Assembly (NCBI RefSeq): GCF_002113885.1
Contig: NW_018408761.1
Location: 997,580 to 1,061,579, forward strand
Length of the DNA stretch: 64,000 bases
Reading direction: 5' to 3'
DNA from: Mizuhopecten yessoensis
Lineage: Eukaryota
Positions 4,780-60,843 of this stretch are shown piece after piece. How positions within the stretch are numbered: position 1 is the stretch's first letter; the number at the start of each line of letters is the position of its first letter. The notes beneath the pieces are model-generated. The model searched no databases and had not been told where the DNA came from. It saw only the letters and a list, made by a program, of their open reading frames with translations. A program made the position numbers and the translations under genes.

Positions 4780-4914
4780 ATGAATTCCTCCATATTCCGA
4801 CGTCTTACTGTTGTGCTTGAGTTCAACTCAATGATGCCATTCAAGGAAAAAGCCAGATGGCGCAAGAAAATTACGGACAATGGTGGGACTGTGTCCTATA
4901 TCATAACAAAGAAG
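4780..4914 (+). CDS. PARP4: PARP4-like exon 1 (BRCT, N-terminal half)
   Basis: ATG at 4780. MNSSIFRRLTVVLEFNSMMPFKEKARWRKKITDNGGTVSYIITKK. Donor AAG|GTGAGC, phase 0. Aligns with the vertebrate PARP4 N-terminus (..IKENGGKFSF..). Confidence 0.85.
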
Positions 4915-32488: not shown

Positions 32489-33507
32489 GTGAGTGATCCA
32501 GTCTCATCACCTTGTTGTATGAGGCTTTGTTATTGTTGGTTGTAAGCAAGGGAGAAACTCTCAGCATCATCCTGAGAAAATAATCTGACCCAAGCATCTG
32601 CACTAACAAATCTCATATGAAGGATTGTAATTTTAACACAGTACTGGGTCTCTTCTAAAGTGGTGGACGTTTTTTTGTTTCAAACATTACTATACTGTAG
32701 ACCTTGGTTTGAACTCTCATACTAGTAGAATGACTCAGGCATTTATATTCACAAAGTTCACTACAAAGCAAACAGTCATTTAAGTCAGAATGAACAAAAA
32801 ATATAACACTGAGTTCCTTGTTAAATTTCTTTTTGCAAATAATGTTAACGAGCTTTCCTTTAGCATAGGAAAGGGGGTGAGTCTAAATTACAGGTAACAA
32901 ACTTAGTGGTTAAACTATATCATAGTGATCTCAATGTCTTTACTCTAATATACAATTTCGCAACTTTCGTGTTGAGCGATAAACTTCATGTTTTTCCTGC
33001 CATATAATTTCACTGAACCTATTGGAACAGAAGATAATGCCCAAATTCTTCAAGAATTTCTTGAAGTCTCTCAAAAAACAGGGACATAATTCAAATCAGA
33101 GCTTAGTCAATGATTAAAGCTTAATAGGGTAGAAACATGCAGACTAGATCACAAATTAAAAACAAATTTTGCTACTGAAATCATCACATTACATATTGGA
33201 ATACTGGTAGAAGTGGTTCAGTATGATTTACAGAAACAATTATACATATAGATTTGAAATATAGCATTACAAAGAGACAATCTACAGGAAATACGTGTTT
33301 AAAGCTGTCAATCAATATCCATTCCCTTAGTTAACTCATTCACCCCTGATTTCATAATGAATTATTCCAAACTTTGAATTGGAAGAGTTCAAATGTGTCT
33401 TCAGGGGTAATTGAGTTAAATATGATCTCTGAAAATTTCATCTTTAAGAGATATTTAAGAGGTAGTCTTGTACTTCTATGTCACTTTTATGTTTTAATAC
33501 TCTCCAG

Positions 33508-33678
33508 ATGAACACTCAAGTTCAGAAGGCATGCCGTCCAGGTATTTCTGGTGTTAAAGTGGAGTGGCAGCAAAACATGGACACGACCAACAGACCTCTT
33601 CAGGCCCCTAATCACATCCCAAGTTTGTTTTCTGGGTCACGACAGGTCGTGTATGGCTTTGTACCTAACTGTACACAG
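33508..33678 (+). CDS. PARP4: PARP4-like exon 23
   Basis: Acceptor ATACTCTCCAG|. MNTQVQKACRPGISGVKVEWQQNMDTTNRPLQAPNHIPSLFSGSRQVVYGFVPNCTQ (compare vertebrate ..VSVKWQQ...LQAPAQVPSLF...LLVYGFIPHCTQ). Donor CAG|GTGAGA. Confidence 0.9.
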
Positions 33679-35760
33679 GTGAGAATTTTTATTACACTGA
33701 TGTGCTGGTAAGCAGGGGTTCAACTAGTTATATCTTTGTATGGCTTTGTACCTAACTGCACACAGGTGAGAATTTTTATTACACTGATGTGCTGGTAAGC
33801 AGGGGTTCAACTACTCCCCTCGGTAGGGACAAGTTATATCTTTGTATGGCTTTGTACCTAGCTGTACACAGGTGAGACTTTGTATTACACTGATGTACTG
33901 GTAAGCAGGGGTTCAACTACTCACCTCGTTAGGGACAAGTTATATCTTATCTTTGTATGGCTTTGTACCTAACTGTACACAGGCGAGAATTTTTATTACG
34001 AGGATGTGCTGGTAAGCAGGGGTTCAACTACTCGCCTCGTTAGGGACAAGTTATATCTTTGTATGGCTTTGTACCTGAATTTAGGCAGGGGAGGCTTTGT
34101 ATTACACTGATGTGCTGGTAAGCAGGGGCTCAACTACTCACCTCGGTAGGGACAAGTTATATCTTCATATGGCTTTGTACCTAACTGTACACAGGTGAGA
34201 ATTTTTATTACGAGGATGTGCTGGTAAGCAGGGTTTCAACTACTCACCTCGGTAGGGACAAGTTATATCTATGTATGGCTTTGTACCTAACTGTACACAG
34301 GTGAGACTTTTTATTACGAGGATGTGCTGGTAAGCAGGGGTTCAACTACTCCCCTCGGTAGGGACAAGTTATATCTTTGTATGGCTTTGTACCTGAATTT
34401 AGGCAGGGGAGGCTTTGTATTACACTGATGTGCTGGTAAGCAGGGGTTCAACTACTTATTTCTGGTGTTAAAGTGGAGTGGCAGCAAAACATGGACACGA
34501 CCAACAGACCTCTTCAGGCCCCAAATCACATCCCAAGTTTGTTTTCTGGGTCACGACAGGTCGTGTATGGCTTTGTACCTAACTGTACACAAGTGAGAAT
34601 TTTTATTACGAGGATGTGCTGGTAAGCAGGGTTTCAACTACTCACCTCGGTAGGGACAAGTTATATCTTCATATGGCTTTGTACCTAACTGTACACAGGT
34701 GAGAATTTTTATTACACTGATGTGCTGGTAAGCAGGGGTTCAACTACTCCCCTCGGTAGGGACAAGTTATATCTTTGTATGGCTTTGTGCCTAACTGTAC
34801 ACAGGTGAGACTTTGTATTACACTAATGTGCTGGTAAGCAGGGGTTCAACTACTCACATCGGTAGGGACAAGTTATATCACGCTTTATATCTAGATAAAA
34901 TAAAACGAGTTCATTACAAAGATGACCGGACAAAAAATGATGTATTCAATATCAATATCAATATTGATATATCTTTGTATGGCTTTGTACCTAACTGTAC
35001 ACAGGTAAGACTTTGTATTACACTGATGTACTGGTAAGCAGGGGTTCAACTACTTACCTCGTTAGGGACAAGTTATATCTTTGTATGGCTTTGTACCTAA
35101 CTGTGCACAGGTGAGACTTTGTATTACACTGATGTGCTGGTAAGCAGGGATTCAACTAGTTATATCTTTGTATGGCTTTGTACCTAACTGTACACTGGTG
35201 AGACTTTGTATTACGAGGATGTGCTGGTAAGCCGGGGTTCAACTACTCACCTCGGTAGGGACAAGTTATATCTATGTATGGCTTTGTACCTAACTGTACA
35301 CAGGTGACACTTTGTATTACGAGGATGTGCTGGTAAGCAGGGGTTCAACTACTCCCCTCGGTAGGGACAAGTTATATCTTTGTATGGCTTTGTACCTAAC
35401 TGCACACAGGTGAGAATTTTTATTACACTGATGTGCTGGTAAGCAGGGGTTCAACTAGTTATATCTTTGTATGGCTTTGTACCTAACTGCACACAGGTGA
35501 GAATTTTTATTACACTGATGTGCTGGTAAGCAGGGGTTCAACTAGTTATATCTTTGTATGGCTTTGTACCTAACTGCACACAGGTGAGAATTTTTATTAC
35601 ACTGATGTGCTGGTAAGCAGGGGTTCAACTAGTTATATCTTTGTATGGCTTTGTACCTAACTGTGCACAGGTGAGACTTTGTATTACACTGATGTGCTGG
35701 TAAGCAGGGGTTCAACTACTCACATCGGTAGGGACAAGTTATATCACGCTTTATATCTAG
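33543..35760 (+). repeat. Minisatellite (about 86-110 bp unit, about 19 copies) seeded from the last codons plus 5' splice site of exon 23; includes a 136-nt second copy of the exon 3' part at 34457-34592
   Basis: Each unit starts with TATGGCTTTGTACCTAACTGTACACAG|GTGAGA (YGFVPNCTQ plus donor). It continues with ATTTTTATTACACTGATGTGCTGGTAAGCAGGGGTTCAACTAC(TCACCTCGGTAGGGACAA)GTTATATCTTTG. Confidence 0.9.
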
Positions 35761-35920
35761 ATAAAATAAAACGAGTTCATTACAAAGCTGACAGGACCAA
35801 AAATGATGTATTCAATATCAATATCAATATTGATTATATTAGGAGACTGTAAGTGCAGAATTAAGTTCTTTGCAAAGGGGTTTTTAATGTGTGGTGGAAC
35901 TGGAATGGGTTGATTGTCGG

Positions 35921-42549: not shown

Positions 42550-42726
42550 TCCCAATCGAGATACACACCCTGACTGGTAGGACTATCCCCGTGAGTGTGT
42601 CCGAGGGCGACACCGTGTCTGACTTGAAGAATAAGATCCATCAGATAGATGGACTTGACCCAGAGCAGCAGAGATTGATTGTTGGTGGGAAACCGCTGAA
42701 GGATCTCGCTGTTCTCTCCGATCTTG
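42550..42726 (+). CDS. PARP4: PARP4-like exon 30 (ubiquitin-like domain, first three quarters)
   Basis: Acceptor TTATTCCCATTGCAG|. (F)PIEIHTLTGRTIPVSVSEGDTVSDLKNKIHQIDGLDPEQQRLIVGGKPLKDLAVLSDL, which aligns with ubiquitin [58 protein letters not shown]. Donor CTTG|GTAATT, phase 1. Confidence 0.85.
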
Positions 42727-42744
42727 GTAATTATACCCCACATA

Positions 42745-43166
42745 ACGTTGTATAAACGGTGGGTCTGATCCCCATTTGGGACAGAGAGGCGGGGCTTTAA
42801 TATCCTTCTTCTTCCGTTGGGATGAAGGTATTTTGACCAAACTTGAACAGTAGCATCCTATGGGGAAGGGAAATCCATATTAGGTCTAATGCATCCTTGG
42901 GTGAAGGGGACCTAATTTTGTATCAATTGTGGGTCTAACCCTCCTATGGGCAAAGGGGCGGGGCCCAATAGAGGAAACATAGCAAATTCTTCAAATCCTC
43001 CTTTTCCTGTAGGAATGACAAGATTTTGTCCAATTGCATATAAATATAATCCCTGACTAATCATGTAATACATGTACATTTCCAGCATCATCTGGCTATT
43101 TCAACTTCAATTTTGCTAACATTTCCAGGTGAGCTATACAGGTCCTCTGGGCCTCTTGTTTTTTTT
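42745..43166 (+). mobile_element. Family A element, 5'-truncated, starting about 18 bp after the exon 30 donor
   Basis: Units of the ..TGTATAAA..GTGGGTCT.....CC......GGG.....GGGGC....AATAG.GGAAA type. Tail TTCCAGGTGAGCTATACAGGTCCTCTGGGCCTCTTGTTTTTT. Confidence 0.55.
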
Positions 43167-43239
43167 ATTTTATGAAACTCAACAAATGTAATCTTACACC
43201 ACACTCTGAAGTGTTGCTTTTCTTTTTTTCATCAAATAG

Positions 43240-43925
43240 TGGGCTGTTCAAATCACTATTCATCTGTGGTCTGTCTTCCATTCATCATTCAGTCCATCCA
43301 TCCATCCATTTGTCCTTAAACAATTCTTGATAGTGCTATTTCTCAGAGAGATCTTTCTCAAGTTTCACCTGAAGGTTCCCTTTGTTCCCTAGTTATGCTT
43401 ATCAAATTAAGGGTCCTGACAAAGTGTTGTTATTTTTCGGGTCGATCAAAATTCCAATATGGCCGACATGGCCACCATTTTGAAAAAAAACAATTTCAAA
43501 CTTAAGGTCAAGTTCTGCTGGGCCGATTAAACTTAAACTTTTTAGGAATGATCGACTTATTGTCCTGACAAAGTGTTGTTATATTTCGGGTCAATCAGAA
43601 ATCCAATATGGCCACCACGGCCCCCATTTTGAAAAACTATTTCAAACTTAAAGTCAAGTTCTAATGGGCCGATTAAACTGAAACTTTGTAGGAATGATCG
43701 ACTCATGGTCCTGACAAAGTGTTGTTATTTTTCGGGTCGATCAGAAATACAATTTGGCTGCCATGGCCGCTATTTTGAAAATAACTATTTCAAACTTAAA
43801 ATCAAGTTCTAATAGGCCCATTTAACTGAAACTCTTTCTAAGAATGATCAGCTCATGGTCCTGACAAACTTAAGTTAACGTTATACTTAACTATTTTTTA
43901 CTCAAATTGGTACATATTTCAACAA
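43240..43925 (+). mobile_element. Family B element (approximately 131-bp units, about 3.5 copies), 3'-truncated
   Basis: Same GGTCCTGACAAAGTGTTGTTATTTTTCGGGTCGATCA.AAAT.CAATATGGCC...GCC.CCATTTTGAAAA units as 6443-6886. No tail motif. Confidence 0.55.
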
Positions 43926-44738
43926 CAACAAAAAATCTTGGATTTCAACAGTTCAGTTTGTTGTCACTTTTTCCCATAAAGTCCTTAAACAATAAGCATT
44001 GTACTAGTAAATAGGTAAAACAACCAGCTCGCTTTGAAAGAACAGTGTCATACACAGCAGAATGAAGGCTTTGCTCAAAAGTTACCACAATTAAGGTGCG
44101 TTACTGTTAACGTGACTCAATCTTACAGATAAGAGAGAAAAGAAGAATCTTACATAGAATCTATGAAGATAATAAGAATAATATCTTTTATTTAACCAGG
44201 GTTACATATTTAGACAATGTCTAGTTTACAATATGGCGCTGAAGCAAACTATATATACAAGCATGACAACAATTTAAGATAACAGTATAACACTGCAGTA
44301 TATGGTATCATCACAGTCAATGTAACTTGAAGTTAAGTAATCCTAAATTAGAATTTAATAGTGAACACTTGCATATCACACGAGTGTTACTGAATGATAT
44401 GGTTAAAGCATAGTCAAATATACATAATATGTTAATATGGCAAAGCGTAAAAAATGACAAGATATACACCAATTAGTCCAATATAGTGTGTATTAAAATG
44501 AGACAAAGAAGTCGGTGGTGTGAAAAATAATAATTTATGATAGAAATATGATGGTACGATAGTCGGTGTCAAGGTCCCCCGGGGATCTCTTGTTTTAAAA
44601 GACAGAAAGATGTGAAAATGAAAATAAAGCATTAATGGGGAAAATAAAACACGAACTGCTAAAGAGGTTAATGTCGTTTTCTTTAAGGCAGTGGCCAATC
44701 ATATCGTCCACAGTCATATCTAAAAGCAGATCTATGCT

Positions 44739-46463
44739 TTTTAGCTCACCGGCCTGAAGGGCAAGTGAGCTTATGCTATGGCGCGGCGTCAGGCATCCGT
44801 CATCTTTTCCTAAAAAACGCTACTTGTCATAAACGACTGAGCAGATTTTGACCAAATTTGGTCAGAAGCATCCTTATGGGAAGGGGAACAAATTTTGTAT
44901 AAATGGTGGGTCTGGCCCCCTAGGGGCTGAGGGGTGGGGCCCAATAGGGAAAATATAGCAAATTCTTTAAAATCCTTCTTCTTTTGTAGGAATAAAAGGA
45001 TTGGTTCCATATTTGGTCTGAAGCATCCTTGGGGGAAGAGGAACCAATTTTGTATAAATGGGGGGTCTGGCCCCTGAGGGGCCTGAGCGACAGGCCAAAT
45101 AGGGGAAACATAGCAAATTCTTTAAAATCCTTCTTCTGTAGGAATGAAAGGATTTGTTCCATATTTAGTCTTAAGCATCCTTGGGTTAAGGGGAACCAAT
45201 TTTGTATAAACTGTGGGTCTGGCCCCTTTGGGGCCTGAGCGACGGGGCCCAATAGGGGAAACATAGCAAATTCTTTAAAATCTTTCTTCTGCAGGAATGA
45301 AAGGATTTGTTCCATATTTGGTCTGAAGCATCCTTGGGTGAAGTGGAACCGATTTTGTATAAGCAAGGGGTCTAGCCCCCATGGATCTGAGGGGCGGGGC
45401 CAAAAGGGGTCAATTGCGCTATATTGATTTAAGCGACTTCTTCTCTGGAACTAAGAGATGGATATCAACCATATTTGACTGGAAGCATCCCTCTGTAGTG
45501 GAGATTCACAATTGTACAAATGGTTGGGCTGACATCCCAGGGGGCTGAGGTGCGGGTCCAAAAGGGCGCAATTTGGCTATATTGGTGTACGACTTCTTCT
45601 GTAGCATTATACCATGGATATCGATCATATTTGGTCAGAAGCTTTCATGGGAAGTAGGGATTCAAAATTGTACAAATGGTGGGGCTGACCCCCCGTGCTA
45701 AGGGGTGGGGCCAAAAAAAGTTTATTACTTGGAAATGGTTGAGATCCCAACCATATAACCATATATATAATTGTGGAGTATGAAGAGAAGCATTCACATT
45801 TGCTTCAAGGATGGCCTAGGGTCTGGCCCCACCCTTTGAGACATAGTCCCTGGGTCATATCTTTGAAACGATTGAGATCCGCACCCCAGAACTATATATA
45901 CAAATGCTTGGCATAAAGAGACAAAAGTAGTCATGGTATTAAAATAGACCCTGGGGTCTGACCGAACCCCTAGGGACCTAGTTTCTTAGTCACAGCTTCG
46001 AAACAGTTGAGATCCCCACCCTATAACTATGCATATATACAATTGCTGAGTATAAAGAGATGAATGCACATATGCTTCCAGGATGGCCTTGGGGTCTGCC
46101 CAAACTTTGCAGACTTAACCCCTGGGTAAATATAACTTTGAAACAGTTGAGATCCCCACCCCAAGACTATAAATACAAATGCTAGACAAAAAGAGACGAA
46201 TATAGTCATGATATTATAATTGATCCTGGCGTCTGGCCACAACCCGAGGGATCTAGTTTCTGAGTCACAGCTTGGAAACAGTTGAGATCCCCACCCCATT
46301 ACCATACATTAAATTGCTGGGCATGAAAAATCTAATACAGACATACTACAAGAATTGACATTGGGGTCTGGCATATACCCTTGGATCTCATTTGGAGAAT
46401 ATTTTGCTTTTTGATTGCTTAGATATTCAGGTGAGGAATTCAGGCCCTCTGTGCCTCTTGTTT
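44739..46463 (+). mobile_element. Long family A composite element (three different internal tandem arrays), ending about 130 bp upstream of exon 31
   Basis: Head TTTTTAGCTCACCGGCCTGAAGGGCAAGTGAGCTTATGCTATGGCGCGGCGTC. Internal arrays of about 120 bp (44860-45400), about 165 bp (45400-45720) and about 150 bp (45720-46320). Tail TTCAGGTGAGGAATTCAGGCCCTCTGTGCCTCTTGTTT. Confidence 0.7.
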
Positions 46464-46593
46464 ACCATAAGAATACATCATATTTGATTGAGAGGATGTG
46501 CTTTTAGAGGTGGCAGCTGTTTTGATACAACGTTATGTGAGGGCATGAGTTAGCCTCTATATAACAATTGTATTTTTTTTCTATATTCTTCAG

Positions 46594-46694
46594 ATCTGGA
46601 GTATAATGCTGTCTTCCTGTTACCAAGGCTGCGAGGGGGACTTAGTTTTGGTCTCAAGGAAGATTTGAAAACAAAGCGTATTCTCGCGGAAAAC
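46594..46694 (+). CDS. PARP4: PARP4-like exon 31 (ubiquitin-like domain C-terminus with RLRGG)
   Basis: Acceptor TTTTCTATATTCTTCAG|. (D)LEYNAVFLLPRLRGGLSFGLKEDLKTKRILAEN. RLRGG is at 46626-46640. Donor AAC|GTATGA, phase 0. Read-through of the donor gives V then TGA. Confidence 0.8.
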
Positions 46695-46777
46695 GTATGA
46701 TATGACAATAAGACATAAAATGTGGATTCCACTCTCAAAAATCTAAGGGTGGGGTAGAAAGTGGTTTATTGGACATT

Positions 46778-48637
46778 TTTAGCTCACCTGCCCGAACGGC
46801 AAGTGAGCTTATGCCATGGCGCGGCGTCCAGCATCCTTCAACTTTTCCTAAAAATCGCTACTAGTCATAAACGACTGAGCAGATTTTGACCAAATTTGGT
46901 CAGAAGCATCCTTATGGGAAGGGGAACAAATTTTGTATAAATGGTGGGTCTGGCCCCCCTGGTGGCTGAGGGGTGTGGCCCAATAGGGAACACATAGTAA
47001 ATTCTTTAAAATCCTTCTCCTTCTGTAGGATTGAAAGGATTTGTTCCATATTTGGTCTGATGCATCCTTAGAGAAAGAGGAACCAATTTTGTATAAACCG
47101 TGGGTCTGGACCCCGAGGGGCCTGAGGGGTGGGGCCCAATAGGGAACACATAGTAAATTCTTTAAAAACCTTCCTCTTCTGTAGGAATGAAAGGATTTGT
47201 TCCATATTTGGTCTGAAGCATCCTTAGGGAAAGAGGAACCAATTTTGTATAAACCGCGGGTCTGGCCCCCGAGGGGCCTGAGGGGTGGGGCCCTATAGGG
47301 ATCACATAGTAAATTCTTTAAAATCCTTCCTCTTCTGTAGGAATAAAAGGATTTGTTCCATATTTAGTCTGAAGCATCCTTGGGTAAAGGGGAACCAATT
47401 TTTTATAAACCATGGGTCTGGCCCCACAGGGGCCTGAGCGACGGGGCCCAGTATGGGAAACTGAACAATTTCTTTAAAATCCTTCTTCTCTGTAGGAATG
47501 AAAGGATTTGTTCCATATTTGGTCGGAAGCATCCTTCGGTGAAGGGGAACCAATTTTGTATAAACAAGAGGTCTGGCCCCCAGGAACTTGAGGGGCGGGG
47601 CCAAAAGGGGGCAGTTGCGCTATATTAATTTAAGCGACTTCTTCTCTGGAACTAAGGGATAGATATCAACCATATTTGACTGAAAGCATCCCTCGGAAGA
47701 GGAGATTCAAAATTGTACAAATGGTTGGGCTGACCCCCCGTGCTAAGGGGTGAGGGTTGCTATTAACGACTTATTCTGTAGAATTATGCTAAGGATATCA
47801 ATCATATTTGGTCAGAAGTATTCATGGGAGGTAGGGATTCAAAATTGTACAAATGTTTGGGCTGACCCCCCTGTGCTAAGGGGTTGGGCCAAAAAAGGTT
47901 TATTACTTGGAAATGGTTGAGATCCCCGCGGTATAACCATATATACAATTGTGGAGTATAAAGGGAAGCATGCACATTTGCTCCCAGGATGGCCTAGGGT
48001 CTGGCCCCACCCTTTGAGACATAGTCCCTGGGTCATAACTTTGAAATGATTGAGATTTCCACCCCAGAACTATATATACAAATGCTTGGCATATAGAGAC
48101 AAAAGTAGTCATGGTATTAGAATAGACCCTGGGGTCTGACCGAACCCCTAGGGACCTAGTTTCTTAGGCAAAGCTTCGAAACAGTTGAGATCCCCACCCT
48201 ATAACCATGCATATATACAATTGCTGAGTATGAAGAGATGATTGCACATATGCTTCCAGGATGGCCTTGGGGTCTGCCCCACCCTTGCAGACTTAACCCC
48301 TGTGTCATAACTTTGAAACAGTTGAGATCCCCACTTTAAAACTATATACAAATGCTGGGCTTAAAGAGAAGAAACCAGTCATGATATTAAGAATTGATCC
48401 AGGGGTCTGGCCACAACCCTAGGGATCTAGTTTCTGAGTCACAGCTTGGAAACAGTTGAGATCCCCACCCCATAACCATACATTAAATTGCTGGGCATGG
48501 AAAATCTAATACAGACATACTACAAGAATTGGCATTTGGATCTGGCATATTCCCTTGGATCTCATTTGGAGAATATTTTGCCATGATTGCTTAGATATCC
48601 AGGTGAGCGATTCAGGCCCTCTGGGCCTCTTGTTTTT
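46778..48637 (+). mobile_element. Long family A composite element, starting about 84 bp downstream of exon 31
   Basis: Head TTTTTAGCTCACCTGCCCGAACGGCAAGTGAGCTTATGCCATGGCGCGGCGTC. Same array order as 44739-46463. Tail TCCAGGTGAGCGATTCAGGCCCTCTGGGCCTCTTGTTTTTT. Confidence 0.7.
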
Positions 48638-48765
48638 TAAATCTACTCTTCATGAATGATAGGTTTCTTCAGTACCTTTAAATTGTGAATGCAATTACCC
48701 TGATGTCTCCCATTCACCACTGGGAAGGGGGAAATTCTGCTACATTTCCTATGGTTATAACAGCT

Positions 48766-50481
48766 TTTAGCTCACCTGGTCCGAAGGACCAGGGTGAGCT
48801 TATGCCATACCATGGCATCCGTCGTCCGTACGTACGTCAACAATTTCTTTAAACGACTTCTTCTTCTTAACCACTGGTTGGAATTAAACTAATTTTGACT
48901 GGAAGCATCCCTAGGTGGTTGGGATTCAAAATTGTACAAATGGTGGGGCTGACTCCCCAGGGGGCTGAGGGGTGGGGCCAAAAGGGGTCAATTTGCCCAT
49001 ATTGCTGTAAGCGACTTCTTCTCTGGAACTAAGAATTGGATATCAACCATATTTGACTGGAAGCATCCCTAGGTGGTGGTGATTAAAAATTGTACAAATG
49101 GCGGGGCTGACTCCCCAGGGGGCTTAGGGGGGGCCAAAAGGGGGCAATTTTGCTATATTGCTACAAACGACTTCTTCTGTAGAACTGTGCACTGGATATC
49201 AATCATATTTGATCAAAAGCATTCCTGGGAGGCAGGGATTTAAAATTGTACAAATGGTGTGGCTGACCCCCCAGGGGGCTGAGGGGCAGGGCCAAAAAGG
49301 GTATTTGGCTATACTGCTTTAAGTGACTTCTTCTCTGGAACTAAGTGATGGATATCAACCTTATTTGACTGGAAGCATCTCTAGGTGGTGGAGATTCAAA
49401 ATTGTACAAACGGTTGGGCTGACCCCCCAGGGGGCTGAGGGGCGGGGCCAAAAGGGGGCAATTTGGTTATATTGCTATAAATGACTTCTTCTGCAGAACT
49501 ATGCCATGGATATTGATCATATTTGGTCGGAAGTATTCATGGGAGGCAGGGATTCAAAATTGTACAAATGGTGGGGCTGACCCCCCGGGCTAAGGGGTGG
49601 GGCCAATAAAATGTATTACTTGGAAATGGTTGAGATCCCCACCATATAACCATATATACAATTGCTGAGTATAAAGAGAAGAATGCACATTTGCTTCCAG
49701 GATGTCCCTAGGGTCTGGCCCCACCCTTGGAGACATAGTCCCTGGGCCATAACTTTAAAACGGTTGAGATCCCCACCCCAAAACTATATATACAAATGCT
49801 GGGCATAAAGAGACGAATGCAATCATGATATCAGAATAGACCCTGGGGTCTGACCGAACCCCTAGGGACCTAGTTTCTTAGTCACAGCTTGGAAACAGTT
49901 GAGAGCCCCACCCTATAACCGTATATATACAATTGCTGAGTATAAAGAGATGATTGCACATATGCTTCCAGGTTGGCCTTGGGGACTGCCCCACCCTTGG
50001 AGACTTAACCCCTGGGTCATAACTTTGAAATGGTTAATATCCCCACCCCAAAACTATATATACAATTGTTGGGCATAAAGAGACGAATGCAGTCATGACA
50101 TTAGAATTGATCCCAGGGTCTGCCCCACCCTTGCAGACTTGGCCCCTGGGTCATAACTTTGAAACGGTTGAGATCCCCACACCAAAACTTTATATACAAA
50201 TGCTTGGCAAAAAGAGACAAATGCAGTCACGATATTAGAATCGATCCTGGGGTCTGGCCACAACTCTAGGGACCTAGTTTCTGAGTCAAAGCTTGGAAAC
50301 AGTTGAGATCCCCACCCCATAACCATACATAAAATTGCTGGGCATGAAAAATTTAATATAGCTATGCTACAAGGATTGGCCTTGGGGTCTGGCATATTCT
50401 CTTGATCTCATTTGGAGAATAGTTTGCCATGATTGCTTAGGTATCCAGGTGAGCGATACAGGCCCTCTGGGCCTCTTGTTT
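48766..50481 (+). mobile_element. Long family A composite element (third consecutive copy)
   Basis: Head TTTTAGCTCACCTGGTCCGAAGGACCAGGGTGAGCTTATGCCATACCATGGCATCCGTCGTC. Tail TCCAGGTGAGCGATACAGGCCCTCTGGGCCTCTTGTTT. Confidence 0.7.
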
Positions 50482-50554
50482 ATTTATCCTCAGCAGAAAA
50501 TAATTCAGTTCAATTTTTGTTATGGCATGGCATCGATATAGAATCTATTTTAGT

Positions 50555-51060
50555 TGTTGTACAACATAAAGATTTGTGGTTAAATTCTAAGCTATGAGAT
50601 ATGAAGTCTCTCTTACTCACCGGTACTCAGTATAACATGAAGATTTGTGGTTAAATTCTTAGCTATGAGATATGAAGTCTCTCTTACTCACCGGTACTTA
50701 GTATAACATGAAGATTTGTGGTTAAATTCTTAGCTATGAGATATGAAATCTCTTTTACTTGCTGTATAACATGAAGATTTGTGGTTAAATTCTTAGCAAT
50801 GAGATATGAAATCTCTTTTACTTGCTGTATTATATGGAGATTTGTGGTTATATTCTCAGCTATATGATATAGAATCTCTTTTACTTGGTGTATAATATGG
50901 AGATTTGTAGTTATATTCTCAGCTATATGATATAGAATCTCTTTTACTTGCTGTATAACATGTAGATTTGTGGTTAAATTCTCAGACATGTGATATAGAA
51001 TATCCTTTACATGGGGAAAATATGAAGTTTGTTGGTAAATTATTAGCTATTTTTAGTGAA
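50555..51060. repeat. 62-71-bp minisatellite, about 8 copies, 170 bp upstream of exon 32
   Basis: The (A/G)AGATTTGTGGTTAAATTCT.AGCTATGAGATATGAA.TCTCT.TTACT.. units are spaced 71, 71, 63, 62, 65, 63 and 62 bp apart. This generates ORF 50684-50989 (-). Confidence 0.9.
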
Positions 51061-51232
51061 CATTGATTAATCAGCCTTAATATTTTTACTTTTGTCAGTT
51101 AAACTATATTTAGTCACTATACTCAATGTAAACTTCTTAATAATACCCACAAAAACCACAGAAGCAATGATTCATGAGTTTACTATTGTACAGTACAGGT
51201 ACATGTGAAGTATTAACATTTCTGTATTTCAG

Positions 51233-51459
51233 GACATGAATGAGTATGATCAGATATATGGTAAGAAGGTGCATACGGAAAAGGACAAAAGCTGTACTGA
51301 TGATGGAAAAAACCCGGTGAAGATGTCCTCATTGTTTTCTCCTTTTAGGCAATCCTTACGAATGATGGCTCCAAGGAAACAGTTAGCAACCAAAGCTGCC
51401 AGAAAATCTGCACCTGCAAACTTTGATGAAAATGAGGAGGAGCAGAATGAGGATGACAG

Positions 51460-51497
<38 letters not shown>

Positions 51498-54313
51498 TTG
51501 AAAAGATGGGCAACTTTAGCTGCATGGCACTTCCAGATGACAACGTGGTTGATGATGCTACGAACAAGAAACAGGAAGTGTCAGATGTAGGAAGAATACC
51601 AGACTCTCCACTCTCAGCAACACAGTTTGGCCCCTTGTCTCCAAAATGTTCAGATTCATTTGGTACAAACTTTGAAAAATTTGAAATCTCTCAGTATTTA
51701 GATGAAGACATGGAGATTGATTTAGATACTGAAGACCCGGCATTCCTCATTCTCACTTCTGAAATATCTGACATATTTTCACCTTCAATGGCAGGCCATT
51801 CTCAGGACACTCCAGCCTATATATCAACCTCCCCATCTTACAAACCAACTTCCCCATCCTATTCGCCCACTTCCCCATCTTACAAACCAACTTCCCCATC
51901 CTATTCGCCCACCTCCCCATCTTACAAACCAACTTCCCCATCCTATTCGCCCACCTCCCCATCTTACAAACCAACTTCTCTATCCTATTCGCCCACTTCC
52001 CCATCTTACAAACCAACTTCTCCATCCTATTCACCAAATAGAAGAGCACGAAGAGCCAAATCAACATTTGAGGATTTCCAACATGAATCAACATCAAACA
52101 ATAAAGATTTTGTGGTTTCAGGTTCAAGACAAGCAAAGTCAAGCAGCACATCTAGTGAACATGGTTTGTGTGGAGCTCCAGTGCAAGCAGAACCAGGCAG
52201 TAAACCAAGTCAGAGCTTCAATTTTAATGCTTCGCTACAAACAGCATCAAGCAATGAACCAACACAAAGTTTGGGATTGGGGGCTCCAAACCTAGCAGAA
52301 CTAGGCGGTAAACCAAGTCAGGGGTTCAATTTTAGTGCTCCTCTAGTAACAGCATCAAGAAATATATCAACACAAAGTTTGGGATTGGGGGCTCCAAACC
52401 TAGCAGAACCAAACACAATGCCAAGTCAAGGGTTTTCCTTTGGAGCTCGAATGCAAACAACTCAAAGCGCTTCACCAGCCGAAGGTTTCAGTTTTTCTCA
52501 GAATCAAACATTGCAGAGCATTACCAGTAAAGGAAGCCATTGTTTTGGATTTGGGACTTCAAAACCAGCCGGAGCAAGCAGAACGACAAGTCAAGGGTTT
52601 TCCTTTGGCGCTCAAATGCAGTCCCAACGATGCAATATACCAACCCAAGATTTCTATTTTGGAGCTTCAAATTCAGCAGGTTTTGGAGATGACGGTGACA
52701 GACGTGGTGGTTATGGAGGTGTCAGTGTTAGACCTGGTGGTTATGGAGATGACAGTGACAGACGTGGTGGTTATGGAGGTGTCAGTGTTAGACGTGGTGG
52801 TTATGGAGGTGTCAGTGAGGGACTTGGTGGTTATGGAGGTGTCAGTGTTAGACGTGGTAGTTATGGAGGTGACAGTGTTAGATGTGGTGGTTATGGAGGT
52901 GTCAGTGAGGAATGTGGTGGTTATGGAGGTGTCAGTGAGGGACTTGGTAGTTATGGAGGTGTCAGTGAGGGACTTGGTAGTTATGGAGATGACGGTGTCG
53001 GACGTGGTGGTTATGGAGATGACAGTGTCGGACGTGGTGGTTATGGAGGTGACAGTGTCGGAGGTGATGGTTATGGAGGTGTCAGTGAGGGATTTGGTGG
53101 TTATGGAGGTGACAGTGAGGGATGTGGTGGTTATGGAGGTGTCAGTGTTAGATGTGGTGGTTATGGAGGTGTCAGTGAGGGACGTGGTGGTTATGGAGGT
53201 GACAGTGAGGGACGTGGTGGTCCTAGACTTGCTGGTTCTAAAGATGGACATGTTTCTTACATAGAAACAGCACCAACATTTACATATTTGAAGGATCTTG
53301 ACTTGAATTTAGCAAAACATGATCCAAAAACTAGGATATTGAAGGAAAATGACAGAAGACCTTCCAGTGTAACAGAGAAGGATCTGCCTTCACAGCCTTT
53401 CAGACATGTACAGGATAAAATGTTCCCACCAGACTTTGATGAATCCTTATTACCTAAACAAAAGAGAAAAATTCCTCCTGTTGGAAGAGGAGGTTCTGGA
53501 TTCACTGCAAGGAATGACCAGGGTCCTGCTGAAACAACCAAAGAACAAGGTCGAAGGTCATTAAAGTCAGTCAGAGGCGCAATGCATGGTGCAAGATCAA
53601 GAGACAGAAATAGGGAACAATCTCGTGAGCTTATTGTGCTGGATAAGAGTAAAAAACTAAGTTTGAGTCATGACAGAAGGCGGAGGAGTTTGAGTAGAAG
53701 TTTGAGTCGAGACAGAAGACAGAGGAGTTTGAGTAGAAGTTTGAGTCGAGACAGAAGGCGGAGGAGTTTGAGTAGAAGTTTGAGTCGAGACAGAAGGCGG
53801 AGGAGTTTGAGTAGAAGTTTGAGTCGAGGAAGGGGGAGAAGAGACTTGGAAAGATGTTACAGTAGAGATAGAGCAAGAAAGGAAAATAAAAAAATGCACA
53901 GATCAAGTGGAAATAATGATACAAACAGTAGGAATAAAAATAGGGACAAAGCAGGAAGCAAAATAGACAGAGATCCTGCAAGAGAAAGTAAGAAACAGAT
54001 AAAGCATAAAAATGAAAAGAAGGAGCAAACAAAGGCTGATGAACAGGTTGTCAAAACATTTGGGAAAAAAGGGAAGAAAAGGGAACAGACAAGGGATGAT
54101 GAAGAGATTGTCAAAACTGGAGGGAAGAACCTGTCAGGAAAGTTGGAATATGATGATCATGAGAAAATGGACTTTACAGTGGACATGGCACCAACTTTGA
54201 AAGTCTGGGATGTAACATCAGAGACAGGCAAGGACATTGTGAAATTCATAAAGTATATTTCTGATTCAATCTTCTTTTATATACAAAAGATCTGTAATTT
54301 TCTACAAATTCAA
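51233..54313 (+). CDS. PARP4: PARP4-like exon 32: 3081-nt low-complexity exon (H3-tail copy, poly-Asp, CTD-like heptads, FG-like, GGYGG, RS and Lys-rich modules)
   Basis: Acceptor TTCTGTATTTCAG| with phase 0 from exon 31. Single open frame of 1027 codons (the track ORF 51236-54337 is the same frame). Donor CAA|GTGAGC after ..KICNFLQIQ (compare vertebrate PARP4 ..SCFLQIK..). An alternative weaker donor is ATCT|GTAATT after 54293. Confidence 0.8.
51368..51418 (+). other. Histone H3 tail copy: [17 protein letters not shown] (identical to H3 residues 15-31)
   Basis: Direct translation of GCT CCA AGG AAA CAG TTA GCA ACC AAA GCT GCC AGA AAA TCT GCA CCT GCA in the exon 32 frame. Confidence 0.9.
51461..51496 (+). 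repeat. (GAT)12 coding microsatellite, poly-Asp tract
   Basis: Twelve uninterrupted GAT codons within [18 protein letters not shown]. Confidence 0.95.
51824..52039 (+). repeat. RNA polymerase II CTD-like heptad array (42-bp two-heptad unit, about 10 heptads)
   Basis: [72 protein letters not shown]. Confidence 0.9.
52214..52687 (+). other. FG-nucleoporin-like segment
   Basis: SFNF, GFNFS, GFSFG, GFSFS, CFGFG, GFSFG, FYFG and AGFG motifs, separated by uncharged S/T/Q/N/A/G/P-rich spacers. Includes a 34-aa duplicated unit ([20 protein letters not shown]). Confidence 0.7.
52700..53221 (+). repeat. 30-bp coding tandem repeat, about 17 copies of the decapeptide (R/L/C)GGYGG(V/D)S(V/E)(R/G)
   Basis: [50 protein letters not shown]...[14 protein letters not shown]. 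Other frames on both strands stay open across it because of the repeat. Confidence 0.9.
53657..53833 (+). repeat. 42-bp coding tandem repeat, 4 copies of [14 protein letters not shown] (RS-domain-like)
   Basis: [62 protein letters not shown]. Confidence 0.9.
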
Positions 54314-54344
54314 GTGAGCTTAAGTGAACTTTCTTGATTAGCTT

Positions 54345-54975
54345 GTAATGATATACAGTCCTGCAGTAAAACTTGTCTAAGAACTCACCTGTCTAAATCA
54401 TCTTGTAGTGTTACAGTCCTACAGTAAAACTTGTCTTAGAACTCACCTGTCTAAATCATCTTGTAATTATATTTATACAGCCCTACAGTAAAACTTGTCT
54501 AAGAACTCACCTGTCTAAATCATCTTGTAATTATATATATACAGTCCTACAGTAAAACTTGTCTTAGAACTCACCTGTCTAAATCATCTTGTAATTATAT
54601 ATATACAGCCCTACAGTAAAACTTGTCTAAGAACTCACCTGTCTAAATCATCTTTTAGTGTTACAGCCCTACAGTAAAACTTGTCTAAGAACTCACCTCT
54701 CTTAATCATCTTGTAATTATATATATACAGTCCGACAGTAAAACTTGTCTTAAAACTCACCTGTCTAAATCATCTTTTAGTGTTACAGCCCTACAGTAAA
54801 ACTTGTCTAAGAATTCACCTGTCTAAATCATCTTGTAGTGTTACAGTACTACAGTAAAACTTGTCTAAGAATTCACCTGTCTAAATCATCTTGTAGTGTT
54901 ACAGCCCTACAGTAAAACTTGTCTAAGAACTCACCTGTCTTAATCATCTTGTAATTATATATATACAGTCCTACA
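54345..54975. repeat. 57-65-bp minisatellite, about 10 copies, starting about 30 bp after the exon 32 donor
   Basis: CCTACAGTAAAACTTGTCT(A/T)AGAACTCACCTGTCTAAATCATCTTGTA(GTGTTACAG / ATTATATATATACAG) repeated. Confidence 0.9.
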
Positions 54976-55605
54976 GCATTTCATGTCTCAGAATCGATTT
55001 GTGTAAACCAACTTGTGTCCATGTTATATTTCATGGTAATCTCAAAATCCAAGATGGTTGCCCTTAGTTATCCTTTTCATTGGGTAAAACCCTTCCTCTG
55101 AGACATTTTCAATTTTTGTATACTAGAAAATGTTTCTTATGTGAAACTCAAATAATGTTGTTACTTTTCATGACAAAAATACAAGATAGCCACCAATGGC
55201 TCCGATTTGCAGACAGTTGCTATTTCTCTATAACAGTAGCAATTGACTTCTAACTAATCTAAATGATTCAAATTTAATGTTCCTGTATTGTTTAAAAAAA
55301 ATGTAATTCATGTGAGCGTTAAAGCTTATTTCGTTTCTTGTTATTATACATATATCTACACTGTCCATAACAACCAAATGCATGCTCAAGGAAAGGCTAA
55401 CTGTTAAAACAGAATCTGATGTCATGCACTTTTTTCCCATATTGATCATTAAGTTTCATTCAACAAACCTTAATCGTTGGATATGGAAAAAATATCCTAG
55501 AATAGATAACAAACTACAGTTTAGAAGTATCATAAATCATTTGGTATATCTAGAACATCTAATTAAAAAGAAAAGAGAATAATAACATTTGTTCTATTGT
55601 TACAG

Positions 55606-55640
55606 GTGAAGCAGCTCCCTCCTCAGTTCCTGCGATGTAA
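55606..55640 (+). CDS. PARP4: PARP4-like exon 33 (mini-exon; donor choice uncertain)
   Basis: Acceptor TTCTATTGTTACAG|. VKQLPPQFLRC(N) using donor TAA|GTATGA (ends 55640, phase 2). An alternative frame, (C)EAAPSSVPA(I), uses donor GAT|GTAAGT (ends 55636). It is also phase-consistent if exon 32 ends at 54293. Confidence 0.55.
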
Positions 55641-55733
55641 GTATGACAATGTTGAAGTTGGACTGTCTAAAGAAATATTAAACTTACTTATTGAAGAAAT
55701 GAAGAAAACTATTAAGAAAATCAATTTTGTGGT

Positions 55734-56228
55734 TTTTAGCTCACCTGGCCCCTTGGCCCATGCCGTGGTGCGGCATCCGGCGTCAATATTTTACTTTAAA
55801 CAACTTCTCAATAACCAAAAGGCCCTAGGTACTGATATTGGGCCTGCAGCATGCTGGGATGAAGGGCTACCAAGTTTGTTCAAATGAATGACCTTGACCC
55901 ACTTTCAAGGTCACAGGAGTCAAATATCTTAAAATCTTCAAACAACTTCTTCTCAATAACCAAAAGGCCCAGGGTACTGATATTGGGCCTGTAGCATGCT
56001 GGGATGAAGGGCTACCAAGTTTGTTCAAATGAATGACCTTGACCCACTTTCAACCCAATATCCTTGTTCGACATTCAAGGTCACAGGCGTCATATGTTTA
56101 AATCTTGTAATAGGATCTTATGAATCAAACACTGATATTCTGCCTGTAGCTGTATTTTAGTCCACTCTTAAGATTACAAGTGTGAAATAATACCAGGTGA
56201 GCGATGCAGGCCCATTGGGCCTCTAGTT
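55734..56228 (+). mobile_element. Family A composite element, about 94 bp after exon 33
   Basis: Head TTTTTAGCTCACCTGGCCCCTTGGCCCATGCCGTGGTGCGGCATCC. About 120-bp units as in 20571-21494. Tail ACCAGGTGAGCGATGCAGGCCCATTGGGCCTCTAG. Confidence 0.65.
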
Positions 56229-56956
56229 TTTAGGTCACTTGAGCTTAAGCTCAATTGACCTATTGTTATCCGTCTTTGTCCGTCGTCTTCCGTCGTGCGT
56301 CGTCAGTCGTGTGTCGTCATTTTACATTTTCAACTTAAGCTGAAATACTGGCAAAGGGATTTCATTAATATTTCATGGGAAGTTTACTGACATTTTCCAG
56401 ACAAAGTGTTAATATTTTTCGGGTCAATCAGAAATCCAATATGGCCACCACGTCTGCTATTTTGAAAAACTATTTCAAACTTAAAGTCAAGTTCTGCTAA
56501 GCCGATTGAACTGAAACTTTGTCGGAATGATCGACTCATGGTCCTGACAAAGTATTGTTATTTTTCGGGTTGATCCGAAATCTGATATGGCCGACATGGC
56601 CGCCATTTTGAAAAACTCTTTCAAACTTAAAGTCAAGTTCTACTGGGCCGATTGAACTAAAACTTAATAGGAATGATCGACTCATGGTCCTGACAAAGTG
56701 TTGTTATTTTTCGGGTCGATCAGAAATCCAATATGGCCACCAAGGCCGCCATTTTGAAAATAACTATTTCAAACTTAAAGTCAAGTTCTGCTAGGCCGAT
56801 TTAACTGAATCTTTTTAGGAATTATTGACTCATGGTCCTGACAAACTTAAGTTAACGTTATACTTAACTATTTTTTACTCAAATTGGTACATATTTCAAC
56901 AACAAAAATAAATACTGTAGGACTCGGGTGACCGTTAAGGCCCATGGGCCTCTTGT
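56229..56956 (+). mobile_element. Family B composite element directly abutting the previous element
   Basis: Head TTTTTAGGTCACTTGAGCTTAAGCTCAATTGACC. About 131-bp units, about 3.5 copies. Tail CTCGGGTGACCGTTAAGGCCCATGGGCCTCTTGTT. Confidence 0.65.
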
Positions 56957-57305
56957 TATAATTATGTTTTAAGTACAATAATGCATACAGAAGTATTTTG
57001 TTTTCTTTTATTATCTTTTAGGATAGCTATTTAAATGTTTTGTTCATGAGTAACTGTAATGGAAACCAGCCTTCAGGAGAATATTCTCTTATTTATTTGC
57101 TTTTTATTACAAGGGCTTCTGTATACCACTAGGTATCCTCCTTAAACCTAGAAGAAGAATGTAATACTTCGATGTATAATGGATATTCGATTTCTACACT
57201 TGATTTCAACTCATTAATTATTGGAAACATTACAGAATTCTGCTGCTGATATATCACACATTAAATCAAATTGAATTAAATTTGAATGCAAAATTCACTT
57301 TCAGT

Positions 57306-57393
57306 TGTGAGGATGTCGGGATCTGGAAAGGCATTGTACGAAAGATTTCAAAAGTCCCTAACACTGAGGATCTCCTGCAACACATTAATACGG
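57306..57393 (+). CDS. PARP4: PARP4-like exon 34 (C-terminal vault-interaction-like region)
   Basis: Acceptor AAATTCACTTTCAG|. (N)CEDVGIWKGIVRKISKVPNTEDLLQHINT (compare vertebrate ..WQDAVPWTELLSLQTED). Donor ACG|GTACAG, phase 0. The other frames hit stops here or in exon 35. Confidence 0.7.
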
Positions 57394-57418
57394 TACAGAA
57401 ATAGTTAGTCTTGTTTTT

Positions 57419-58000
57419 TATGCCCCCACCATAAAATGGGGAGGCATATATAGTGTTACCCATGTCTGTCCCGTCGCGTCCCGTCCCGTCCCGATTCAAT
57501 GTAAACACTTGGCAGCTTCATTCTTCGACAGATTTTGGTCAAACTTTATACAAAGGTCAAGTATGAGTATACTTCGGACATCGTTTTATTTCAGGGATCC
57601 AAGGTCAAGGCCAAGATCACACTTGCTATATATAGAAAATCATCAACTGATACAATTTAAACACTTAGCAACTTCATTCTTTCAAGGATTTTGGTCAAAC
57701 TTTATGCAAAGGTCAAGTATGAGTATACTTCGGACATTGTTGTGTTTCAGGGTTCCAAGGTCAAGGCCCAGGTCAATGTTGCTATATATAGAAAATCATC
57801 TACTGATTAAATTTAAATGCTTAGCAACTTCATTCAATATGTTATGGAGATGGTAATAACATACAGAAAATACATATGAATATTAAAATCAACTTTAAGT
57901 GTAGTACCTTGTGTGTGTGCATGTTTCAGGGTATCAAGATCAAAGTGGTTGTAACTTTTTATAGAACACAGAAACTAATTTCACATGGCAGTGGGGGCAT
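57419..58000. mobile_element. TIR element (ATGCCCCCAC ... GTGGGGGCAT) with internal approximately 140-bp tandem units, starting about 26 bp after the exon 34 donor
   Basis: ATGCCCCCAC at 57421-57430 and GTGGGGGCAT at 57991-58000. The internal duplicated unit produces the repetitive ORF 57509-57856. Confidence 0.6.
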
Positions 58001-58426
58001 TTATGTCTTATAGACATTTTCTCGTTATAAGTAAGATACACTGAGAAATAGTTAGTCCATCTCACTTTTCAGTGAGGTACGTTAAGAAACAGGGTCACTA
58101 CCTGTGTTACTTATCAGTAAGGTACATCAAGAAGTATTTAGTCGGTCCTCAGTTGAGAAATAAAACACTCGATCCTACTGATTTAATGTGTTTACTGGTA
58201 TTAGATCACCTTGCCGATCAAGTGAGCATATGAAATGGAGAATTGTCCATCTTTCAAGTTTCATCTAAAACCTTATCTTGATCCGACTGCCCCGTATATA
58301 CTGTAAAACTTTAGAGCACTGATTGAAAGCAGACTTCAAGTTTGGTGCAATACAATGATCGGGTCTAGTGGAGAGGTCCTGCACTGGAAACTAACTCTTG
58401 AGTAACTCTGTAAAAGTCGCATTTTT

Positions 58427-58840
58427 GTGTCGCCTGCAACACGAGGCGACATATAGGTATTACTTTGTCTGCGTCGTCAGAAACAAGGTTTCGGTGTGAT
58501 AACTTGAGTTCCTTTGGGTTGATTGAACTCGACTTTGGTACACGTATGGCATACCAACAAAACTCAGACAGGTACGTATTTCAGAAGTTTACATGCATCT
58601 TTAGTGGAGTTATGCCCCTTTTATTGCCAGATAAGGGCATTGTGTTGTAAATTTATGCAAGAACTTTTTTATTTTATCAATTCCTTTCAAATTTTGTACG
58701 GTAATGCTAGAAGCAATAATGTTCAACATATATTATGGGTTTTTCTGTCGAGTTTCAACATTCCGCGTTTTGGCATATCTGTTTACGTGATAACTCAAGC
58801 CAAAACACTTTTCCTACTAAAAGCGCTGTGCAGGCGACAC
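58427..58840. mobile_element. MITE with TIR GTGTCGCCTGCAAC / GTGCAGGCGACAC, ending about 73 bp upstream of exon 35
   Basis: GTGTCGCCTGCAACACGAGGCGACAT at 58427 onward, versus ..GCTGTGCAGGCGACAC ending at 58840. Confidence 0.5.
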
Positions 58841-58913
58841 ATCCACTTCCGTGGAATTCTTGTTTATTTCTGTGTTGTTGGAAAATCATTTTGTATATTC
58901 TTGTGTTTCACAG

Positions 58914-59013
58914 GGACAATATTGGGAACTGACTCCAGAGCTGTGTCAAACCCTCGGTGTTTTCTACATCAAGGTCACCAACCAGCTGAAGCTACATGGC
59001 CTGTACTCCTTAG
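58914..59013 (+). CDS. PARP4: PARP4-like exon 35 (C-terminal vault-interaction-like region)
   Basis: Acceptor TTCTTGTGTTTCACAG|. GQYWELTPELCQTLGVFYIKVTNQLKLHGLYSL(G) (compare vertebrate DGFWKLTPELGLILNLNTNGLHSFLKQKGIQSLG). Donor TTAG|GTATGT, phase 1. Confidence 0.85.
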
Positions 59014-60475: not shown

Positions 60476-60843
60476 GAAGCCATGCTGCATCCTTAGGAGA
60501 AAACATGGTAGCAACATATCTTGTGGTCCTCAAGATAATACAGATCATTTACCAGCAGATGAACAGAAAACCACTGAAATTGGACCTGGCCGGATTTGCG
60601 TCTTTGGACTTGATGAACTGGACATTGAATTGTAACAATACCCTGTCCATCAAGTTAGATACTACGCGGTCAACAGGATGCTCAGCGGTGTTGTATCTCC
60701 ACAATGAAATATCAGGTGTTCACAAATGGTTGACCGAGAAGCGTGGTGAACATGAACGACTCTGTAGGCAGTTAGAACTAGGACATTCCTTACAAACTTT
60801 CACTTGGAACCTTTTCTGTGCTCTCAACGAAAAGCCAGTCTGA
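60476..60843 (+). CDS. PARP4: PARP4-like exon 36 (last coding exon)
   Basis: Acceptor AATCTGTGTTGTAG|. (G)SHAASLGENMVATYLVVLKIIQIIYQQMNRKPLKLDL...SAVLYLHNEISGVHKWLTEKRGEHERLCRQLELGHSLQTFTWNLFCALNEKPV. Stop TGA at 60841-60843. Compare vertebrate ..LLDLIATMLVLQFIRTRLEKEG...AFEAIKQASEWVRRTEGQYPSICPRLELGNDW. Confidence 0.85.

Follow-up and report, generated by a model that had tools for sequence, protein, structure and literature searches.

A nucleoporin-like FG repeat segment in the linker exon of a scallop PARP4-like gene, a possible mimic among several host look-alike modules

An FG-like repeat segment in the PARP4 linker

A PARP4-like gene of the scallop Mizuhopecten yessoensis contains a giant linker exon (51233–54313, + strand) that encodes, at 52214–52687 (+), a segment of 158 amino acids (aa) resembling the phenylalanine–glycine (FG) domains of nuclear pore proteins. 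The gene was studied in a window of 64,000 nt (RefSeq assembly GCF_002113885.1, contig NW_018408761.1, positions 997,580–1,061,579 of the forward strand), and all coordinates given here are positions in this window. The FG segment consists of seven 18-aa units with the core [PT]SQGF-x-FGA and a terminal GFG, is low in charge and is predicted to be disordered. On present sequence evidence it appears to mimic an FG domain just as its neighbours in the exon appear to mimic the histone H3 tail, the RNA polymerase II (Pol II) C-terminal domain (CTD), and RGG/GY and RS domains. We consider the case evenly balanced that the segment is a lineage-specific mimic of FG nucleoporins (FG-Nups), acting as multivalent bait on the tether between PARP4 and the vault.

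The initial annotation of this DNA had described eight phenylalanine-containing motifs over some 160 residues, and all eight (SFNF, GFNFS, GFSFG, GFSFS, CFGFG, GFSFG, FYFG and AGFG) are read in the + frame of 52214–52687. The segment holds 15 Phe, 7 FxF, 6 FG and 4 FxFG, with all but one of the Phe (14/15) falling in seven F-x-F pairs. Its description as having uncharged spacers rich in S, T, Q, N, A, G and P was also borne out, charged residues making up 12 of the 158 (7.6%, net charge +2) and S/T/Q/N/A/G/P together 69.6%. Distances from one motif start to the next are 36, 36, 18, 19, 18, 18 and 10 residues, which indicates an 18-residue period. Among 200,000 residue shuffles of the segment, at least seven FxF occurred in 7 and at least four FxFG in 1, bearing in mind that motifs within tandem repeats are not independent events.

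Anchoring on the F-x-F pairs resolves the segment into seven diverged 18-aa units with the consensus PSQGFSFGA, in which the two Phe (F0 and F+2) are the only invariant columns (7/7) and the other columns agree in 2–5 of seven. Identity between units ranges from 11 to 67% overall, and from 11 to 50% when the recent duplicate pair and units 3 and 6 are set aside; the F0 codon is TTC in four units and TTT in three. A fixed motif with drifting spacers is established behaviour of FG domains. This structure argues for an origin of the segment by tandem amplification of one 18-residue unit. The first two units (KPSQ[S/G]FNF...) are formed by a recent 108-nt tandem duplication (52186–52411, +; 2.1 copies with 88% match in Tandem Repeats Finder), which had been recognised in the initial annotation, its period being 36 aa rather than the 34 residues given there. 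The two copies are separated by roughly 10.5 nonsynonymous against 1.5 synonymous changes (ratio of nonsynonymous to synonymous differences per site, pN/pS, of ~2.2 on 12 differences).

The frame in which the segment is read appears to be the genuine coding frame, because the stop-to-stop open frame holding the linker exon stays open for 1,042 codons (51209–54334) and the periods of the large tandem arrays of the exon are multiples of three in all four cases (42, 108, 30 and 39 nt). The DNA in which this frame lies has a GC content of about 36–44%, and the second-longest open reading frame (ORF) of the window, counted from ATG, GTG or TTG to stop, encodes 459 aa. From the same sequence we infer that the linker exon is included in the mRNA and translated.

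Relationship to nucleoporins

Several observations weigh against a role of the segment as FG-Nup mimic. Pfam returned no Nucleoporin_FG match to the segment or to the exon at E ≤ 10, and a search of 5.8 billion proteins with the segment and the 664 non-repetitive residues of the exon gave nothing at E ≤ 0.01. Eight motifs in 158 aa are short by the standards of FG domains, and Gly is missing from three of the units (FNFN, FNFS and FSFS). The tails of 120 PARP4 homologues contain at most 5 FxF/FG per 160 aa, against 12 here, a density unique among the homologues retrieved; as far as these data reach, the module appears to be lineage-specific. The nonsynonymous excess in the recent duplicate pair may reflect relaxed constraint as well as diversifying selection, the sample being too small to favour either. 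Furthermore, the disorder of the segment and of the linker exon is predicted from single-sequence AlphaFold models, which are weak evidence: predicted local distance difference test (pLDDT) block means over the segment are 25–42, with no element reaching 50, and the entire exon has a mean pLDDT of 34 with no residue at ≥70, the better-scored parts being the acidic run (block means 49–58) and a helix at the extreme 3′ end (53–65).

The sole weak Pfam match of the segment was to Nup_retrotrp_bd (11.3 bits, cut-off 25), and a Pfam scan of the whole linker exon found no domain for anchoring in the nuclear pore complex (NPC), such as Nsp1_C, Nup54 or the Nup98 autoproteolytic domain. When the segment was compared with PDB sequences, only chance matches to ketoacyl synthases appeared. 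The whole 1,042-aa frame, searched against the 5.8 billion proteins, matched only RPB1 CTDs, which is uninformative on orthology. An exhaustive phmmer search with the segment (1.84 billion representatives) gave four matches at E ≤ 1e-3, three of them to unrelated repeat proteins and the fourth (E 1.2e-5) to a nucleoporin of Nsp1/Nup62 type carrying Nsp1_C and Nucleoporin_FG, aligned via GFSFGA repeats. The segment thus resembles nucleoporins at the motif level and, lacking both a Nucleoporin_FG match and an NPC anchor domain, is not a nucleoporin homologue. The FG-nucleoporin-like character proposed in the initial annotation stands for composition, for the FxFG/FGFG type and for the ~18-residue spacing, while membership of the nucleoporins is not supported, given these searches and the lack of comparable density in the 120 homologues. 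Capture of a nucleoporin exon was considered and rejected, as the segment has no similarity to any Nup outside the repeats and its units share one 18-aa consensus, a structure that points to local amplification instead.

A close parallel is with the FxFG domains of the Nsp1/Nup62 family, in which GFSFG/FGFG/FxFG cores likewise recur every ~18 residues in disordered sequence rich in S/T/Q/N/A/G/P, with invariant Phe and drifting spacers. Unlike those domains, the scallop segment lacks profile match and anchor, is confined to its eight motifs and lies within a PARP4 gene, and its origin was probably independent of theirs.

Look-alike modules in the same exon

The linker exon (3,081 nt, 1,027 codons, phase 0 at both ends, canonical AG/GT) carries a series of further modules on the + strand. 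A histone H3 tail copy (51368–51418), identical at 17 of 17 positions to H3 residues 15–31 (H3 chains and peptides in the PDB, E from 5e-6), spans K18, K23, K27 and S28 and is written in AT-rich codons. It is followed by an acidic run with poly-Asp (51419–51505), by two isolated FG motifs (TQFG and DSFG, 51620–51664) and by an acidic-hydrophobic stretch (51704–51754), the latter two upstream of a CTD-like array. This array comprises about ten Pol II CTD-like heptads, YSPTSPS alternating with YKPTSPS (51827–52036; 42-nt period, 96% match), which match RPB1 and score 34.7 bits against PF05001 (cut-off 20.3). Between its repeat units 20 changes are synonymous and 4 nonsynonymous (pN/pS 0.08), which points to purifying selection on the heptads themselves.

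Beyond the FG segment lie a GGYGG/RGG decapeptide array (52679–53221; 30 nt × 18) with a pN/pS of 3.3 at variable positions and four RS-domain-like 13-mer repeats (53672–53827; 39-nt period) with a Lys-rich stretch directly after them. Between the two arrays is a basic patch, PKQKRKIP (53453–53476), which resembles a classical nuclear localisation signal (NLS) by sequence only. The last ~30 codons of the exon, to 54313, encode the start of a MINT-like domain, as judged from homology.

Copying of host sequences in the exon is exact for H3 15–31, at profile level for the CTD and at motif level only for the FG segment. The purifying selection on the CTD units and the exact 17/17 H3 copy argue that the content of the exon is selected. 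The initial annotation had considered the FG segment by itself. As the segment sits among H3 tail, CTD, RGG/GY and RS modules in a hypervariable linker, it appears to be one of several look-alike modules, and a role as bait or mimic is no less likely than one dedicated to the nuclear pore.

Gene model and vault-docking domain

The initial annotation had placed the segment on a vault-associated PARP, and reconstruction of the gene agrees with this: the host is a PARP4 orthologue that encodes a C-terminal domain resembling the MVP-interaction (MINT) domain. Using tblastn with molluscan PARP4 homologues, upstream exons covering the BRCT, PARP catalytic, VIT and vWA regions were located at 4780–42726 (+), the exon-by-exon matches reaching the BRCT region at 4780–5016. 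A query that joins the exons between the pre-catalytic helical region and the post-vWA linker, both included, matches PARP4 proteins with E = 0, and the homologues matched have the Pfam content PF00533/PF00644/PF08487/PF13768/PF00092; the closest of them in the conserved core (Mytilus and Solemya) are merely 53–58% identical. The PARP signature His, Tyr and Glu appear in the catalytic exons in LMHAS, GIYFS and DDEFVVY, which we take to be their retained positions.

Downstream of the vWA region, a ubiquitin-like domain is encoded by two exons on the + strand. The first (42550–42726) is in phase 1 at both ends, and the second (46594–46694), located by searching for the missing ubiquitin C-terminus, ends ...LLPRLRGG followed by LSFGLKEDLKTKRILAEN and has a phase-0 donor that fits the linker exon. 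Once spliced, the domain scores 58.6 bits against PF00240. Splicing the first ubiquitin-like exon straight to the giant exon would join phase 1 to phase 0 and was rejected as out of frame. The RLRGG end stands directly before the linker, and an in-frame stop (46697–46699) would be read if the weak donor AAC/GTATGA (slash at the junction) were unused. A short isoform ending after the ubiquitin-like domain, or cleavage of deubiquitinase type after the GG, is possible at this boundary.

The MINT-like domain, begun in the linker exon, continues in an exon at 58914–59013 (+; GQYWELTPEL...LYSLG) and, as judged from homology, in a last exon at 60476–60843 (+) that includes the stop codon. No Pfam model matched this domain in the assembled C-terminus, and the assignment was therefore made by profile and pairwise comparison. 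Against 14 vertebrate MINT domains, hhalign gave a probability of 95.9% (E 5.8e-9, 122 columns) and hmmsearch a score of 35.8 bits, and blastp matched the last ~125 residues of primate PARP4, as well as fish PARP4, with E 1e-5. The chain 42550–42726/46594–46694/51233–54313/58914–59013/60476–60843 has canonical AG/GT borders and compatible phases and forms one frame of 1,274 codons to the stop. Its junction from 54313 to 58914 rebuilds the conserved LQ..G[YF]WELTPELG, reading ...FLQIQ/GQYWELTPEL here and ...LQEGYWELTTELG in fish. The giant exon would thus be an internal coding exon of the PARP4 orthologue, between the ubiquitin-like and MINT-like domains. The giant ORF as an independent nested gene was rejected, since the MINT-like domain begins in its 3′ end and the phases agree at every junction.

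Linkers of PARP4 homologues

Because it splices in frame between the ubiquitin-like domain and the MINT-homologous exons, exon 51233–54313 appears to be the positional equivalent of the vertebrate PARP4 linker exon. This largest vertebrate exon (exon 30 in human) is almost wholly disordered, hypervariable in length and sequence, and positively selected, and contact with pathogen factors was proposed for it (Daugherty et al. 2014, PMC4038475); the linker between the ITIH-like region and the MVPID has also been proposed as a possible site of viral cleavage or post-translational modification that alters vault association (Suskiewicz et al. 2023, PMC10450202). The scallop exon shares with it the position between the ITIH-like/vWA part and the MVP-interaction domain, the rank of largest exon, the disorder, here predicted, and the lack of conservation (PMC4038475, PMC10450202). 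It differs in its length, ~1,027 codons against ~360 aa in human, in being preceded by a ubiquitin-like domain and in being built of look-alike modules that include a dense FG array. For the scallop, comparison of turnover is limited to paralogous repeat units, which may undergo gene conversion (pN/pS of 2.2 on 12 differences for the FG duplicate, 3.3 for the GGY array and 0.08 for the CTD array), positive selection being documented in vertebrates only. Vertebrate linkers hold at most 1–4 FG dipeptides each. Their total of 33 is about twice the 15.3 expected from composition, a weak hint of FG enrichment, since the sequences are related.

Look-alikes of other host proteins were found in the tails of several PARP4 homologues. 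A stretch like H3 1–16 follows the ubiquitin-like domain in two gastropods (Littorina saxatilis, P0137, and Batillaria attramentaria, P0133). The copy in Littorina saxatilis reads RTNQTARMSTGGKAPARMQMAK and has Met at the K9 and K18 positions, which recalls the K-to-M histone mutants that inhibit SET-domain methyltransferases. Motifs like the C-terminus of the ribosomal P-stalk occur in four molluscs and one fish (P0131, P0133, P0141, P0146 and P0209), examples being EEESDEEMGFCLFDSDDD and SDEDMGMGLFD. Actin N-terminus/D-loop sequences are present in five species of three phyla, the C-terminal half of 14-3-3 in lancelets and a hemichordate, ubiquitin-like domains in gastropods and Mytilus, and CTD-like heptads in one fish. 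These domains are unlikely to be annotation artefacts, as 14-3-3, actin and ubiquitin-related domains attached to clade-5 PARPs have already been recorded (Perina et al. 2014, PMC4245714). Similarly to those PARPs, whose C-terminal part repeatedly gains pieces of abundant, conserved host proteins, the scallop gene carries host look-alikes near its C-terminus; the cases of Perina et al. (PMC4245714) are folded domains or fragments, whereas here they take the form of short linear motifs and repeats of low complexity (H3 tail, CTD, FG, RGG and RS).

None of 37 invertebrate PARP4 models (P0121–P0152, P0154, P0155, P0188, P0232 and P0237) matched in a search for the MINT domain. Given that the gene in the window does encode one, these models appear truncated, which suggests that public invertebrate PARP4 models stop before the true 3′, vault-binding exons.

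Proposed mechanism

The FG module would sit on a flexible tether joining the enzymatic part of PARP4 (BRCT, PARP, VIT, vWA and ubiquitin-like domains) to the vault-docking MINT-like domain. As an FG-Nup mimic, it would present its paired Phe as multivalent short linear motifs able to capture proteins with FG-binding pockets, either nuclear transport receptors of the host or proteins with which a pathogen docks on FG-Nups or cleaves them. Capture would hold the partner beside the PARP4 catalytic domain and the vault, and could lead to ADP-ribosylation by the adjacent catalytic domain, to sequestration in the vault or to cutting of the tether. Such partners, and the consequence of binding, we infer, the latter from the architecture and from hypotheses in the literature. 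H3 tail, RGG, RS and basic-patch sequences are known classes of import-receptor ligands, and their presence side by side may favour host receptors as partners; lineage-specific turnover, positive selection in vertebrates and exact copies of conserved host sequences may favour pathogen factors.

It is possible, if doubtful, that the hypervariable linker as a whole is a modular array of host-target look-alikes acting as molecular flypaper or tripwire inside the vault, with the FG segment as decoy for factors that attack or use FG-Nups. Pathogen proteases, toxins and capsid proteins that target host hubs would then be captured for ADP-ribosylation or sequestration or, alternatively, a pathogen factor would cut the tether and so release PARP4 from the vault. 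The modules of such an array would be the H3 tail, Pol II CTD, FG-Nup, RGG/GY, RS and NLS-like sequences in this species, and the actin D-loop, 14-3-3, ubiquitin, ribosomal P-stalk tail and H3 N-terminus in other lineages.

Plant NLR integrated decoys and the disordered tripwire of mammalian NLRP1 are fast-evolving regions that copy target sites of the host or pathogen. The scallop linker would be similar as a putatively fast-changing part of a candidate immune protein with presumed target-site copies, an analogy that is speculative as to function; unlike the case of integrated-decoy sensors, we know of no effector, cleavage event or downstream signalling for PARP4. A precedent for FG motifs as interaction modules on a protein outside the NPC is AGFG1/hRIP, which is unrelated to the FG segment in sequence and context.

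Alternative explanations

The segment might instead be a physiological transport element that binds host importin-beta or NTF2-type receptors, with vaults or PARP4 docking at or passing through pores, or carrying receptors. Its FxFG/FGFG cores with uncharged spacers fit such a role, as does the company of other import-receptor ligand classes in the exon (H3 tail, RGG, RS and PKQKRKIP), although CTD heptads and poly-Asp are not, to our knowledge, ligands of this kind. An essential function predicts conservation, yet no such segment was found in any of the PARP4 homologues retrieved (n = 120), and the vertebrate counterpart of the exon is hypervariable and evolves under positive selection (PMC4038475). 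The transport explanation accords with the old idea of the vault as central plug of the NPC (PMC2288824); MINT, however, docks PARP4 to MVP repeats 3–5 on the inner side of the vault cage (PMC12280208), from where the FG motifs would not readily reach pores. On balance, we think a transport role unlikely. A neutral by-product seems equally improbable to us. Under that explanation replication slippage made a compositionally biased spacer in a linker that needs only length and flexibility, and the FxF were inherited from one unit and have no binding role. The tandem-repeat make-up of the segment, the pN/pS of ~2.2 on 12 differences in the recent pair, the restriction to one lineage and the lack of a family match are all compatible with it. 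Against it, the older units have fallen to 11–33% identity and still keep 14/14 paired Phe, with synonymous TTC/TTT variation, the exon has kept its 1,027 codons free of stops in AT-rich DNA, and the strong purifying selection on the CTD module and the exact H3 copy argue that exon content is selected.

Tyr/Gly/Arg-rich and RS sequences are classes known to phase-separate, and arrays of both adjoin the FG segment, which has the low-charge, Phe-rich, polar make-up of cohesive FG domains. PARP4 linkers could self-associate through this segment and the GGYGG/RGG, RS and CTD modules, forming a condensate or a network like a hydrogel within the lumen of the vault that retains RNA or clients non-specifically, and the reported presence of about 10 PARP4 copies per vault (PMC4038475) would help. 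Such a cohesive phase leaves unexplained the exact H3 15–31 copy and the exact host look-alikes in homologues, and we regard it as very unlikely.

Other features of the locus

Several further sequences were noted in and around the gene. A 64-nt tandem repeat (4 copies, 91% match, 54351–54600) lies in the intron directly downstream of the linker exon. Further upstream, a PARP4 intron contains a 106-nt minisatellite of 15–19 copies (33617–35834, +), which has duplicated the 3′ part of an exon encoding ...VKVEWQQNMDTTNRPLQAPNHIPSLFSGSRQVVYGFVPNCTQ, with copies at ~33505–33687 and 34458–34601. The introns flanking the second ubiquitin-like exon (~42900–50600) are packed with repeated transposon-like sequence, in which ORF fragments (...LRGGAKRGQ... 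and ...GAPKGKL.NISKIFF...) recur in both orientations; similar copies occur at 14700–16200. The 459-aa ORF is a single-exon ORF at 1227–2606 (−), Glu/Lys-rich with an SDSDSDSDS run; it matched no Pfam family at E ≤ 0.01 and probably represents a neighbouring gene.

Implications

The disordered, hypervariable PARP4 linker and the occurrence of FG repeats outside nucleoporins are already known. A literature search on PARP4 in connection with decoys, mimics or FG repeats gave no earlier account of a PARP4 linker in which an FG array stands in line with look-alikes of the H3 tail, the CTD, RGG and RS sequences. The function of the vault and of PARP4 is a long-standing open question, for which positive selection on the disordered linker exon of vertebrates has hitherto been the only strong evolutionary clue. 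The scallop linker has legible content, which would turn the question into one of separable bait modules with obvious candidate partners and make the hypothesis tractable module by module. If the flypaper or tripwire reading were true, the vault would gain a concrete role in innate immunity.

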